Source: a virus
DNA length: 64,000 nucleotides
Direction: 5' to 3' (one strand)
IMG/VR virus record: IMGVR_UViG_3300031673_000027
Part shown: positions 7,429 through 60,608 of the stretch, piece by piece
How the letters are laid out: each line of letters opens with the position of its first letter
Numbering within the stretch: position 1 is the stretch's first letter
Notes under the pieces: model-generated
Database searches by the model: none
Seen by the model: only the letters and a program-made list of their open reading frames with translations
What the model was told of the DNA's origin: nothing
Position numbers and translations under genes: made by a program

Positions 7429-7886
7429 GGATACAGGGCAATGACCTGATGGCGTTTTTCACCGGCGGCGTGCTGGAGTCGATTGATACGCCGACGGCGC
7501 CGACCGTGTCAGGGACGGCCACCGAGCTTGATACGGAGATGCTGGAGGCGGTCGATGAGATTATCGCCGAGCTCGGAAAGGTGTTAACCTTTTGGGTGTA
7601 TCCCACGGAGACCTACAACCCGGCCACAGGCAAGAAGACAACCTCTGACGCGACACAATACAACAAAAAGGCCATTCCGCCTTATGAGGTGTCTTTGAAG
7701 TACGTTGACGGGGACCTGGTCAAGGTCGGCGATTTGGCGACGGGCGTGCCAGCGAAGGACATCGAGTTTACTCCAGAGAAGGGCATGAAGGTCAGCATCG
7801 ACACAGCCATTTGGGTAATTACGCGAGTAGCGCCGATATACAGCGGCGAATGGATTTGTCTATATCTGTTGCAACTAAGGAGATAA
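7425..7886 (+). CDS. hypothetical head-tail joining protein
   Basis: ATGA start/stop overlap with the upstream gene. Lies just before the gp10-like and terminator genes. Confidence 0.5.
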   Translation: MRIQGNDLMAFFTGGVLESIDTPTAPTVSGTATELDTEMLEAVDEIIAELGKVLTFWVYPTETYNPATGKKTTSDATQYNKKAIPPYEVSLKYVDGDLVKVGDLATGVPAKDIEFTPEKGMKVSIDTAIWVITRVAPIYSGEWICLYLLQLRR

Positions 7887-7949
7887 CACAATGCCGTGCC
7901 ATAAGGAAAAAAGAAAAGGCGGCGGGAAAGGCAAGAAAGGCAAAGGCCG

Positions 7950-8348
7950 GTGACGGACAACCTCGCTCAATTCAATCGAGAGATCGACGCCTTTGCCCGC
8001 AAGGTGCCGGATAGGGCCGTCACGCTGCACAAGAAAGTCGCGTTCGAGGCCCTACGCCGGCTGGTTTCCAAAACTCCCGTCGATACCGGCAGGGCCCGCG
8101 GCGACTGGCAGGTGACCATTGGTGACCCGGCCACAGGACAGCTCGATGTGCTCGATGTCAGCGGAAGCCTGACGGTCGCCGCCGGTTTGGCGGCTCTTGC
8201 GGGTTTGCCGCCCTATCAAATCGTCTGGATCAGCAACAACGTCGATTATATCGAACGGCTGGAGCACGGGCACAGCAAGCAGGCGCCCGAGGGAATGCTG
8301 GCCGTGACTGTCGAAGAGTTGCGGGCGATGTTCAGGGAGGCGGCGTAA
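7950..8348 (+). CDS. HK97 gp10-like tail completion / head-tail joining protein
   Basis: Motif ISNNVDYIERLEHGHSKQAPEGM is typical of the HK97 gp10 family as I recall it. Synteny supports the call. Confidence 0.7.
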   Translation: MTDNLAQFNREIDAFARKVPDRAVTLHKKVAFEALRRLVSKTPVDTGRARGDWQVTIGDPATGQLDVLDVSGSLTVAAGLAALAGLPPYQIVWISNNVDYIERLEHGHSKQAPEGMLAVTVEELRAMFREAA

Positions 8349-8351
8349 CGC

Positions 8352-8759
8352 ATGACAAGCGAAGCCATAGCCAACGCGATCCGTAGCCGGTTCAAAAGCC
8401 AGGTGGCCGACGTGCTGGAGTTGCCGACGCACTACGACAATCACAAGTTCGACAACCCGGACAATGCCAAATGGTGCCGGTTGACGATCAAGACCGGCGA
8501 GACGTTTCAAATGTCGATCGGCAGTCCAGACGGGCAGCGAGAGCGGACCCACGGCGTGATGATTGCCCAGCTCTTCGGGCCTATTGGCGAAGGGGACGGC
8601 GAGTTGCGGGAAATCGCGGACGCCGTCCGAGCGGCCTTCCGTAGGGTGACAGATACCGGCGTGACGTTTCGGACGCCGTCGGCTCACGAGCAGGGACTGT
8701 TCAGCGATTCATGGCAGATCAATGTGGTCTGCCCATTCTATGCAGACGATATCGGGTAA
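8352..8759 (+). CDS. tail terminator-like protein (DUF4128/gpU-like)
   Basis: 135 aa, pattern THYDNHKFDNPDNAKWCRLTIKTGETFQMSIG, located directly upstream of the tail tube gene. Confidence 0.6.
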   Translation: MTSEAIANAIRSRFKSQVADVLELPTHYDNHKFDNPDNAKWCRLTIKTGETFQMSIGSPDGQRERTHGVMIAQLFGPIGEGDGELREIADAVRAAFRRVTDTGVTFRTPSAHEQGLFSDSWQINVVCPFYADDIG

Positions 8760-58424: not shown

Positions 58425-60608
58425 ATGCCCATCGGCGCTGACAAACTGAGCGAGCTTCCGCAGACCGTCAATGAGATGGTCGCCGACCGAGCGATTCGTC
58501 ACGCCCTGTATCTGGAGCGGTACAAGACGCAGTTGGTCGAGCAGGTCATGGCCCAATTCAACAGGGAAATGCAGCCCGAGCTGCTGGCCAAGATCGAGAG
58601 CAGTTTGCAGCGCGTCGCCGGAACGTCTAAGCAACTCCAGACGCTGTTCAAACACAATGGCGAGCTCATACGCGAACACTACAAGGCAATGGAAGCCAAA
58701 CTCTACGAGCAGCTCCGCGACTTCACCAACGTCGAATCGTCGTGGCTCATCAAGACCCTGGAGCAGGTCAGTCCGATAGCGTGGGACTTCGTAGCGCCGA
58801 GCAGTGCCATACTCAAATCCCTCATCACGCAGCAGCCGATGGAAGGCGCGCTCGTCAAGGAATGGTTTGGCAAGCTCTCGAAGGACACCGCGTTTGCGAT
58901 TAACCGGCAGATTCAGATGGGTATGATTGAAGGCGAGGGGATTGAGAAAATTGTGCGGCGGATCAAGGGGACGCGGGCGGCTCAATACTCGGACGGCATT
59001 CTCAACGCGAGCCGGCACAGTCTCCGCGCCGTGGTGCGGACGAGCGTGAGCAACGTGGCGCACCTGGCCCGCGAGGAAACCTACAAGGCCAACGACGACG
59101 TCGTCAAGGGCGTGCAGATTCAGGCCACGCTGGACACGCGGACCTGCCCCCGTTGTATGAATTGGGACGGAGAAACTTATGAGATAGGCGAAGGCCCGAG
59201 GCCCCCCGCGCATTATTCGTGCTTACCTGGTGACAGCTTTGTATTGTCCCGTCAGAGGGTCATGGCTGTTAGTAAAAGGTGGTTCGATGGAGAAATAATC
59301 ATCCTGCAAAGTGCCTCCCGTCGAAAACTCTCCTGCACCCCAAATCACCCGATATTGACAGACGGCGGGTGGGTTCCTGCAAATCTCTTGAATGTAGGTA
59401 CCTACATAGTCTGCGACGGCGGGCGTGAGTGGAAACCTCTTGCCAACATGGATGGCAAGGATGTTCCAACCAGAATTGAGGATATATCGAAATCGTTTTT
59501 GAACTCTGTCGAGATGCAGACCAGTCCAGTGCCAGTTTCCCCCGAAGATTTCCACGGCGACGGGGTAGGCAGCAAGGTCGCAATTATAGCGTCCAATCGC
59601 TTTCTGAGAAATGGTTGGGATGCCTCTCGCAATCAGCATTGTGGCCATAGTGATTTCGTAGTCGCTAACAAACTTCCGGGGCTTATTCCGTTCCAGACTG
59701 ATTGCGATTTTGTGTCTATGCTCCTCCGTATGCGTGCTACCTACGGACGCCTCATGCGCAGCCTTTGTCAGATTTGCAATGACCGATGGAGAAGCCTTAT
59801 CCATTCTCGCCTGTTGTTGGTCACTCCGATTTCGCAATCTAATACCTCGTTTTTTGAGAATCCTGAGAATTGGCTGCCGCGAGCATCTGAACTTGTCTGC
59901 AATCCCCTGAGCACCGATTCCCTTGCGGTAAAGATTTACGACCTCATATTCGGGCAGCAAGGTCATTCGGGACTCGGGTGGACGAAAAGAGACATTGGAC
60001 TGGCTCAAAATCCGAGAAATGACTTTATCGGTCACGTCATGCGTTTGTGCGATAGTCTTTATCGCTTTGCCTGCAAGATACGATTGGCAGATTTCATCAT
60101 CAGGCAGATATCGCTTGTTGCCCCTGATGCTGACGCCATTCCGTTTAAGGGCGGTCGTAATAGTCTGCACGGAGACCTTGTATCGGCCGCCGATATTTTG
60201 GGCGGAAAGACCGGACCTGTATTTTTTGATGATATTGTCGATGTCAGACGGACTAAGTTTAGTGGCCATGTTTATAACCTCGAAACTCAAAATGGGTTCT
60301 ATTCAGCTCAAGGTATTATAACACATAACTGCCGCTGCACAAGTGTTCCTGTCTTAAAATCCTGGAAGGAGTTGGGCATCGACGCCAAAGAGGCACCGGC
60401 CAGCACGCGGGCGTCGATGAATGGACAGGTCGCCGATACGACGACGTACCCGGAATGGCTCAAAAAGCAAACGGCAGAGGTGCAGGACGATGCGCTGGGC
60501 GTGTCTCGCGGCAGGATGTTCCGCTCCGGTCAACTCAAGTTAAATGACTTCATCGACCGATTGAATAAGCCGTTGACGCTCAAGGAGCTTGAAAGAATGG
60601 TTGGTTGA
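58425..60608 (+). CDS. head morphogenesis protein (SPP1 gp7 / Mu F-like) interrupted by an intein
   Basis: MuF-like region up to ...RPPAHYS. The family HxxCRC-type motif is split by a Hint-domain insertion, and the sequence resumes CRCTSVPVLKSW. Confidence 0.8.
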   Translation: MPIGADKLSELPQTVNEMVADRAIRHALYLERYKTQLVEQVMAQFNREMQPELLAKIESSLQRVAGTSKQLQTLFKHNGELIREHYKAMEAKLYEQLRDFTNVESSWLIKTLEQVSPIAWDFVAPSSAILKSLITQQPMEGALVKEWFGKLSKDTAFAINRQIQMGMIEGEGIEKIVRRIKGTRAAQYSDGILNASRHSLRAVVRTSVSNVAHLAREETYKANDDVVKGVQIQATLDTRTCPRCMNWDGETYEIGEGPRPPAHYSCLPGDSFVLSRQRVMAVSKRWFDGEIIILQSASRRKLSCTPNHPILTDGGWVPANLLNVGTYIVCDGGREWKPLANMDGKDVPTRIEDISKSFLNSVEMQTSPVPVSPEDFHGDGVGSKVAIIASNRFLRNGWDASRNQHCGHSDFVVANKLPGLIPFQTDCDFVSMLLRMRATYGRLMRSLCQICNDRWRSLIHSRLLLVTPISQSNTSFFENPENWLPRASELVCNPLSTDSLAVKIYDLIFGQQGHSGLGWTKRDIGLAQNPRNDFIGHVMRLCDSLYRFACKIRLADFIIRQISLVAPDADAIPFKGGRNSLHGDLVSAADILGGKTGPVFFDDIVDVRRTKFSGHVYNLETQNGFYSAQGIITHNCRCTSVPVLKSWKELGIDAKEAPASTRASMNGQVADTTTYPEWLKKQTAEVQDDALGVSRGRMFRSGQLKLNDFIDRLNKPLTLKELERMVG
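59220..60329 (+). mobile_element. intein (370 aa)
   Basis: Block A CLPGDSFVL, block B SCTPNHPILTDGGWVPANLL, blocks F/G VYNLETQNGFYSAQGIITHN, followed by a +1 Cys. Confidence 0.8.
59223..60269 (-). CDS. putative homing endonuclease encoded antisense within the intein (3 HTH modules, NUMOD3-like, Vsr/PD-(D/E)xK-like domain)
   Basis: 348 aa from the ATG with a GAGG RBS; an alternative TTG start is at 60290. Three tandem HTH-like modules of about 45 aa, then GSTHTEEHRHKIAISL, then YNCDLAAYPVAVEIFGGNWHW...GWNILAIHV. Its stop codon is the complement of intein codon 2. Confidence 0.55.
   Translation of the reverse strand: MATKLSPSDIDNIIKKYRSGLSAQNIGGRYKVSVQTITTALKRNGVSIRGNKRYLPDDEICQSYLAGKAIKTIAQTHDVTDKVISRILSQSNVSFRPPESRMTLLPEYEVVNLYRKGIGAQGIADKFRCSRQPILRILKKRGIRLRNRSDQQQARMDKASPSVIANLTKAAHEASVGSTHTEEHRHKIAISLERNKPRKFVSDYEITMATMLIARGIPTISQKAIGRYNCDLAAYPVAVEIFGGNWHWTGLHLDRVQKRFRYILNSGWNILAIHVGKRFPLTPAVADYVGTYIQEICRNPPAVCQYRVIWGAGEFSTGGTLQDDYFSIEPPFTNSHDPLTGQYKAVTR

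Follow-up and report, generated by a model that had tools for sequence, protein, structure and literature searches.

A phage head morphogenesis gene carries an intein with a homing-endonuclease-like gene on the opposite strand, in codon register

Can one run of codons encode a protein-splicing domain on one strand and a homing-type nuclease on the other, and which of the two proteins does selection see? The question is raised by a locus in the IMG/VR virus record IMGVR_UViG_3300031673_000027, of which a stretch of 64,000 nucleotides (nt), here called the window, was analysed. A head morphogenesis gene of the MuF / SPP1 gp7 type (58425-60608, plus strand; a 727-amino-acid (aa) precursor) contains a class-1 intein of 370 aa (59220-60329, plus strand), and the opposite strand of this insert holds an antisense homing-endonuclease-like gene (59223-60269, minus strand), 348 aa long from an ATG at 60269 to a TAA stop codon at 59225-59223. 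An initial annotation, made from the letters alone, had placed the two frames in exact antiparallel codon register. The coordinates agree: the offset 59223-58425 is 798, or 3 x 266, and being a multiple of three it makes the MuF and antisense frames use the same triplets. Specifically, the triplet at 59223-59225 is Leu codon 2 of the intein (TTA) on the plus strand and the antisense stop (TAA) on the minus strand, as had been claimed, and the antisense open reading frame (ORF) holds none of the codons TTA, CTA and TCA that it was expected to avoid. Counted from a TTG at 60290, a less likely start, the minus-strand ORF spans 59223-60290 and 355 aa. In our judgement the locus is quite probably a mobile intein in which one set of codons serves splicing on one strand and homing on the other.

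On the plus strand, the insert sits inside the H-x-x-C-R-C motif of the MuF protein, with the junctions PPAHYS↓C...THN↓CRCTS; it begins with Cys1 and ends with His-Asn, followed by Cys+1 at 60330. The class-1 signature is present (C1, block B TPNH at aa 40-43 and THN↓C), and likewise in about 90 relatives. The N-terminal splicing region of the Hint domain (59220-59429, plus strand) comprises block A CLPGD and block B TPNHPILT, then GGWVPANLLNVG..., and was modelled by AlphaFold2 with a pLDDT (the predicted score in the local distance difference test) of > 90; the C-terminal region (60180-60329, plus strand), with block F GHVYNLET and block G GIITHN, reached a pLDDT of 89-97. Overall, the intein model was confident from aa 1 to about 105 and at 320-370, with pLDDT < 50 at about aa 145-312. 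Foldseek matched it to the Ssp DnaB, Mtu RecA and Npu DnaB mini-inteins with probability 1.0 and expectation values (E) of ~2e-3, at low template modelling (TM) scores owing to the long interior. A profile built from 62 homologous precursors matched the Mtu RecA intein (E 6e-6) over block B and the strands that follow. Model and profile thus confirmed the plus frame as a Hint-fold intein, as the initial annotation had proposed. That the frame of an essential head gene is held open in about 165 loci suggests protein splicing.

What lies between the splicing blocks had been described as filler. In part this held: the host-frame interior (about aa 145-312; 59652-60155, plus strand) is an open, apparently unstructured linker (pLDDT 30-47), and a Pfam search of the plus-frame interior returned no domain. 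The description failed for a host-frame motif, D-F-H-G-D-G, that is kept in all relatives analysed at its invariant positions (see below). We rejected an in-frame endonuclease in the interior on the grounds of the missing Pfam domain and the disordered model. A fractured or split host gene was also rejected for the window, where the MuF ORF is continuous over its 727 aa, as first annotated.

What, then, does the minus strand encode? The antisense ORF is a real, conserved protein, predicted to combine helix-turn-helix (HTH) modules with a Vsr-like nuclease. Database searches gave 77 relatives with E as low as 1e-186, and the sources of several had named them 'very-short-patch-repair endonuclease'. 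Four Pfam families, HTH_7, HTH_38, HTH_23 and HTH_58, all exceeded their gathering scores and bear out the three HTH modules noted at the outset: module 1 at aa 11-51 (60138-60260, minus strand; HTH_38 / HTH_23), module 2 at aa 51-104 (59979-60140, minus strand; HTH_58) and module 3 at aa 116-147 (59850-59945, minus strand; HTH_7, E 2e-9). A segment that had been called NUMOD3-like was without a Pfam match at E <= 1, and this resemblance was dropped. The putative Vsr/DUF559/EDxHD-like nuclease domain (59304-59672, minus strand) reads QKAIGRYNCDL..PVAVEIFGGNWHW...RFRYILNSGW ... YRVIWGAGE, and the modular layout includes linker helices besides the HTH modules and this domain.

The nuclease assignment comes from profile and fold searches, which were needed because a phmmer search of the antisense protein against Protein Data Bank sequences gave nothing meaningful. 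An AlphaFold2 model from a 32-sequence alignment had a mean pLDDT of 87.9, and the first three Foldseek ranks went to 3r3p (the I-Bth0305I catalytic domain), 1cw0 and 1vsr (E. coli Vsr), each with probability 1.0, target-normalised TM scores of 0.51-0.62 and E of 6e-3 to 9e-3. The Vsr/PD-(D/E)xK-like block recognized by eye is thereby supported. The family profile core, Q.AIG.YN.D...VAVE.FGG.WH...R..Y.L..GW, aligned to 3hrl ('endonuclease-like protein'; E 0.0014), which we take to be a DUF559-type protein, and 23 of 32 family members matched REase_MTES_1575 (PF18741) at E <= 0.01, the best at 4e-7. To judge from these scores, the link to PF18741 (DUF559/Vsr clan) is a relation at the superfamily level only. 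The invariant columns of the family are E, Q, Y, D, E, G, H and R, and the window protein keeps every one; E205, D231, E240 and H247 (348-aa numbering) are among the invariant residues.

Is this protein maintained by selection, or does it merely mirror the intein? We examined about 165 related loci and based the stop-avoidance statistics and the codon alignment on 39 non-redundant ones. Both frames were open in the same register in 21 of 21, about 92 of 98 and 68 of 68 loci in three batches; the six exceptions in the second batch were four contig ends, one unrecognized N-junction and one nonsense variant. Apart from that nonsense variant, every locus that could be checked had both frames open, and the antiparallel register was the same throughout. 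Stop avoidance in the window alone is weak evidence (2.3 stop-complement codons expected, none observed; P about 0.1). AT-rich relatives, however, are expected to hold 15-17 such codons in the antisense gene, and none was seen; over the 39 loci, the summed log10 P was about -111 for the host frame and about -146 for the antisense frame.

The pattern of substitution identifies the selected strand. In the 39-locus codon alignment, entropy in the exteins peaked at host codon position 3, whereas in intein codons 61-320 the peak lay at host position 1, which is antisense position 3, and antisense identity exceeded host identity. At intein codons 1-60 and 321-370 the host-type pattern was back, with overall variation reduced. 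We also classified single-nucleotide codon changes in five moderately diverged pairs, all more distant than the closest protein relative (P0001, 80% identity), which was left out of this analysis. Host-synonymous changes made up 77% in the exteins, 54% in intein codons 1-60, 21% in codons 61-130, 18% in codons 131-320 and 71% in codons 321-370, as against 11%, 41%, 73%, 72% and 18%, respectively, that were antisense-synonymous. Selection is thus on the host frame in the exteins and at both intein ends, and shifts to the antisense frame in intein codons 61-320; purifying selection maintains the antisense ORF as a protein. This split rules out that it is a passive mirror of the plus frame. The mixed pattern at codons 1-60 indicates dual constraint at the N-terminal end of the intein, where the confident nuclease β-strands YRVIWG and GEFSTGG are encoded opposite block B TPNHPILT; dual coding at this end had been suggested from the sequence.

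We then asked how the antisense gene could be expressed from within an intein. Its start codon complements the His codon of block F, which is CAT in 28 and CAC in 4 of 32 loci, giving ATG or GTG. The GAGG Shine-Dalgarno sequence (60278-60281, minus strand), already pointed out as its ribosome-binding site, lies 8 nt before the ATG and is the complement of the block F codons Asn-Leu (AAC CTC). Further upstream, an extended -10-like element, TGtTATAAT (60315-60323, minus strand), complements Ile-Ile-Thr (ATT ATA ACA) of block G: TATAAT derives from Ile-Ile (ATT ATA), and the preceding TG from the Thr codon ACA. Against resampling, in which synonymous codons were drawn 2000 times from the extein usage of each locus, a perfect TATAAT at the fixed position was found in 16 of 39 loci (1.7 expected; resampling maximum 6) and a match of at least 5/6 in 27 of 39 (10.7 expected; maximum 18). 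Likewise, Leu2 was TTA or CTA in 26 of 30 loci (5.6 expected; maximum 12), and GAGG was present in 22 of 34 (4.6 expected; maximum 11). None of the 2000 resamples reached the observed TATAAT, Leu2 or GAGG counts. By this codon-choice argument, a -10-like box, ribosome-binding site, start and stop appear to be written into conserved splicing-block codons, and being built from these codons they would travel with the intein.

Many relatives also have an antisense frame that is open from farther upstream, at an ATG complementary to block G's penultimate His codon (V-M-C-Y-N...), a start that gene callers adopt. In the window, the upstream extension (60290-60329, minus strand) is closed by a TAA, the complement of 60297-60299, which leaves the block F ATG as the conserved start. 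A sigma-70-like site also lies inside the antisense ORF (59583-59610, minus strand; TTCTCA, 16-nt spacer, TATAAT, 10/12 matches); the count of sigma-70-like sites is no higher than in shuffled sequence. A generic terminator scan found no terminators.

How widespread is the arrangement? A tblastn search with the antisense protein found 113 phage records, among them Salmonella Jersey-like phages, E. coli Kagunavirus, Gordonia, Vibrio, Aaphi23/S1249, Pseudomonas and Klebsiella groups, and in each record inspected, except that of Acinetobacter phage IME285, the match was antisense to a MuF-like or head gene. At least 556 relatives were among the 600 pattern matches listed from IMG/VR, and 65 species genomes with relatives came from Pseudomonadota, Gemmatimonadota, Planctomycetota, Chloroflexota, Actinomycetota, Bacteroidota, Cyanobacteria and candidate phyla. 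The plus frame had 583 relatives in the protein database. The insertion site is almost always PP.H..↓C...HN↓C(R/E/D)(C/S), and the junction PP.H..↓C...HN↓C is common to about 90 loci. Intein length classes of about 270, 320 and 370 aa correspond to one, two and three antisense HTH modules. A homologue of the spliced MuF protein was present in 1323 phage records, 1115 of which gave a contiguous intein-less match (>= 80% of spliced MuF), against the 113 records with the nuclease. Such a wide but sporadic distribution fits a mobile element. So does composition: the GC content of the insert is 0.486 versus 0.591 and 0.558 for the exteins, in keeping with the AT-richness first judged by eye, and at third codon positions of the host frame it is 0.34-0.53 versus 0.70-0.78, i.e. 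the extein bias is missing from the insert. The composition of the intein is foreign to its exteins.

The unit of intein plus antisense nuclease also occurs in other places: at the first MuF Cys motif (RTCAF↓C...↓CWSMH), in other MuF subfamilies (DHPNGR↓C...↓CTMIP; HPN↓C...↓CRHSY), in a portal-like 1122-aa ORF (FHDDVW↓C...↓CCLAV) and in portal-MuF fusions (loci with these other sites or hosts: L130, L136; L126, L120, L137, L157; L121, L125, L128; L160; L138, L143). These places suggest switching of insertion site and host. A free-standing homologue of the nuclease (29.6% identity, E 8e-9) was found in Acinetobacter phage vB_AbaM_IME285 (L099, MH853786; locus at 413-2118). There, the nuclease gene is convergent with an intein-less MuF gene, overlapping its 3′ end by 7 nt; the MuF motif LPMCKCRA is intact and the protein matches Phage_Mu_F (E 7e-12). 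This arrangement may represent a precursor state akin to 'collaborative homing'.

The D-F-H-G-D-G motif (intein codons 110-115; 59547-59564, plus strand) lies opposite the nuclease strand PVAVEI, which holds an invariant Glu. Its H, G and D do not vary in any of the 39 loci, and G is kept in 36 of 39; the antisense residues opposite vary only by host-synonymous changes (V/M, V/I, P/S/T/G), and the motif is retained in relatives at other insertion sites and in other hosts. These observations raise the possibility that the plus frame at about aa 70-126, including the motif, is a functional part of the intein, truly dual-coded with the nuclease core, a proposal that would supplement the mobile-intein explanation and is compatible with it. 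In its favour, the AlphaFold2 host-frame model is confident as far as about aa 105 and shows another strand at 120-126; the Mtu RecA intein aligns with the profile to about aa 95; and the free-standing homologue has VALE in place of VAVE in the corresponding strand. This last comparison, however, used one free-standing comparator, the motif itself falls in a low-confidence loop (pLDDT < 50), and conservation that the antisense gene imposes is part of the alignment depth on which AlphaFold2 drew. To our knowledge, no canonical intein block matches D-F-H-G-D-G. We therefore hold this proposal only tentatively and consider it somewhat less probable than its opposite.

How would the element work? 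According to the mobile-intein explanation, the MuF precursor would be translated straight through the 370-aa insert. The Hint domain, formed from roughly aa 1-70 (possibly to about 126) and aa 320-370, would excise the insert and rejoin ...PPAHYS-CRCTS..., the middle of the insert being a tolerated, mostly disordered linker. The minus-strand ORF, almost co-extensive with the intein, would encode a modular endonuclease which, in a mixed infection, would cut intein-less MuF alleles near the H-x-x-C-R-C codons, and recombinational repair would copy the intein and the nuclease gene into the cut allele. Cis splicing combined with homing by an antisense-encoded Vsr-like nuclease is well supported as a reading of the comparative sequence data, from which we infer splicing, antisense transcription and translation, cleavage specificity and homing. 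Several observations weigh against it. The window protein matches PF18741 weakly (E 0.011; 16.3 bits versus a cut-off of 38.2), and the final Asp of EDxHD is not invariant in the family. Pfam Intein_splicing (PF14890) scores below its gathering cut-off (E 4e-7; 30.4 bits versus 35.8), lowered because the model spans the long insertion. A generic sigma-70 scan called neither a full promoter ahead of the antisense start nor the TATAAT element, and the -35-like sequence, TTGTGC, is weak and belongs to the extein. Transcription of a late structural operon would run head-on into the antisense gene. Finally, the codon-choice and stop-avoidance statistics take related loci as independent.

The variable Asp also speaks for another account, in which the antisense protein is conserved but no longer a homing nuclease, being instead a DNA-binding regulator or a domesticated nuclease within a vertically inherited intein. 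HTH modules do dominate the protein, a recent preprint sees several Vsr-like cases as apparently vertically inherited (bioRxiv 10.1101/2025.01.02.630785), and for the window we found no near-identical intein in divergent exteins. Yet all family-invariant residues of the nuclease core are kept, the element is sporadic among MuF alleles, it occupies several insertion sites and hosts, and its composition is foreign to the exteins; we regard the loss of homing as improbable. A more radical alternative would make the antisense ORF a non-functional by-product of the -1 antiparallel register, the one most prone to long spurious ORFs, with the plus-strand conservation mirrored in it. Codon structure favours antiparallel register-0 ORFs, and the lack of stop-complement codons in the window alone is not significant. 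The substitution pattern already refutes this idea, as codons 61-320 wobble at the antisense third position with 72-73% of single changes antisense-synonymous. The above-threshold HTH matches, the confident fold prediction matching Vsr-type nucleases, the 15-17 expected stop-complement codons that AT-rich relatives each avoid and the existence of a free-standing homologue also argue against it; we give it next to no credence. Within the mobile-intein explanation, the sense and antisense genes might form an obligately co-evolving pair, as opposed to a nuclease gene merely dropped backwards into an intein loop. To this we lean slightly. In such a pair, folded parts of the two proteins would share codons, with C-terminal nuclease strands opposite block B and a catalytic strand opposite FHGDG; it would have embedded expression signals, though with the -35-like element outside in the extein the cassette is not wholly self-contained, and intein lengths set by the number of HTH modules, and would span hundreds of phages and prophages from > 10 bacterial phyla; the free-standing relative beside an intein-less MuF gene hints at an origin by 'collaborative homing'.

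Is the arrangement new? Inteins with an antisense endonuclease are a kind already known, from LAGLIDADG cases of 1998 and 2002 and a Vsr-like preprint of 2025. The earlier reports (Gorbalenya 1998; Gogarten 2002, Synechocystis DnaX and Chloroflexus SpoVR-like, as cited in bioRxiv 10.1101/2025.01.02.630785), so far as that citation conveys their content, describe an endonuclease ORF opposite a continuous intein ORF, as in the window, but of the LAGLIDADG rather than the Vsr-like type and in other host genes. Gosselin, Arsenault & Gogarten (bioRxiv 10.1101/2025.01.02.630785, version 2025-10-20) described antisense LAGLIDADG and Vsr-like endonucleases in full actinobacteriophage inteins, with non-canonical-endonuclease inteins spread over four host types, the minor capsid protein among them; the Vsr-like type matches 3R3P by HHpred. 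The architecture in these actinophages is the same, with phylogenetic evidence of transfer. Shared with the window are the full, unsplit intein, the antisense endonuclease with 3R3P (EDxHD) as best match, an in-frame interior without recognizable structure and a long helical region before the nuclease core. While the hosts in the preprint include minor capsid (MuF-type) proteins, its text does not tie the Vsr-like type to them; antisense ORFs in the MuF genes of Gordonia phages are homologues of the window protein (33% identity, E 1e-22 to 3e-24). Unlike the actinophages, the window phage has a GC content of about 54-59% and Pseudomonas-type relatives, and its antisense ORF spans block F to intein codon 2, overlapping blocks A, B and F. 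Searching the preprint's text turned up no mention of promoters, and codons come up in it only as stop codons. The window is thus a Gram-negative-type addition, from a different phage group, to a large antisense Vsr-like family; as far as we checked, what goes beyond the preprint is the strict register, the co-extensive ORF, the embedded signals, the FHGDG motif, the breadth of distribution and the free-standing relative.

Other systems share single traits with the locus. I-Bth0305I has the C-terminal Vsr-like fold, the N-terminal modular DNA-binding motifs and the phage setting in common with it, and its gene lies on the sense strand within a recA group I intron (Taylor et al. 2011, PMC3239194). 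The likeness to I-Bth0305I that had been proposed therefore stands as the best structural match, but not as a matter of genetic context, which is an intron and not an intein, and identity over the catalytic domain is only about 13%. Fractured genes pair split inteins with endonuclease genes that are free-standing and of the Vsr-like or GIY-YIG type (Dassa et al. 2009, PMC2677866). A Vsr-like gene with its own expression signals inside an intein-coding region is common to both; the fractured host gene, however, consists of two ORFs, whereas the window has a continuous host ORF and an antisense nuclease gene. One relative (L035, IMGVR_UViG_3300020036_001384) has a single host-frame nonsense codon about 6 codons before block F (VISL*RTRFSGHVFNLET), which would yield the fractured-gene state. 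Over 6.2 kb, L035 and L033 share 99.5% identity, and the codon is either a sequencing error or the mark of a nascent split-intein, 'fractured' MuF gene. In the ShiLan insertion of phage methylase genes, an out-of-frame 'hidden' HNH endonuclease overlaps an open host-frame insertion, with start and stop just inside it (Arsenault et al. 2025, PMC11855218); that overlap is on the same strand and out of frame, the nuclease is of the HNH type and there is no splicing domain.

The locus offers a natural case of long antiparallel dual coding, in which the selected strand can be read from the substitution pattern, and a test bed for the evolution of overlapping genes, with expression signals embedded in the codons of catalytic protein motifs. 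It would also support the view that mobile inteins were assembled from a splicing domain first, with the endonuclease invading later, and suggests that a Hint domain tolerates a linker, about 170-250 residues long, that another gene dictates. As a family, these elements provide many natural Vsr-type endonucleases with variable HTH arrays and a conserved target.

The host gene was identified by matches of its product to PHROG phrog_241 'head morphogenesis' (E 3e-118) and to Pfam Phage_Mu_F (E 7e-10). It lies between the portal and scaffold genes, and its neighbours are portal phrog_145, scaffold phrog_206 and major head phrog_212. A Megablast search of phage records with the whole MuF gene gave no match, which leaves no close relative for fine-scale comparison. 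In one relative (L007), a gene adjoining the locus at 7535-8753 (minus strand), apparently that of the large terminase subunit with a 1067-aa product, contains LAGLIDADG_3, which would point to another intein in that phage, of the conventional type. At the MuF locus, the annotation of hundreds of phage genomes is wrong or incomplete because gene callers pick the gene of one strand: automatic callers often keep the antisense ORF at the expense of the MuF gene, or vice versa (L005, L007, L009). In some Salmonella phage records the MuF gene goes by the name 'NAD+--asparagine ADP-ribosyltransferase', and in that of Salmonella phage PK1 (L100) both strands are annotated.

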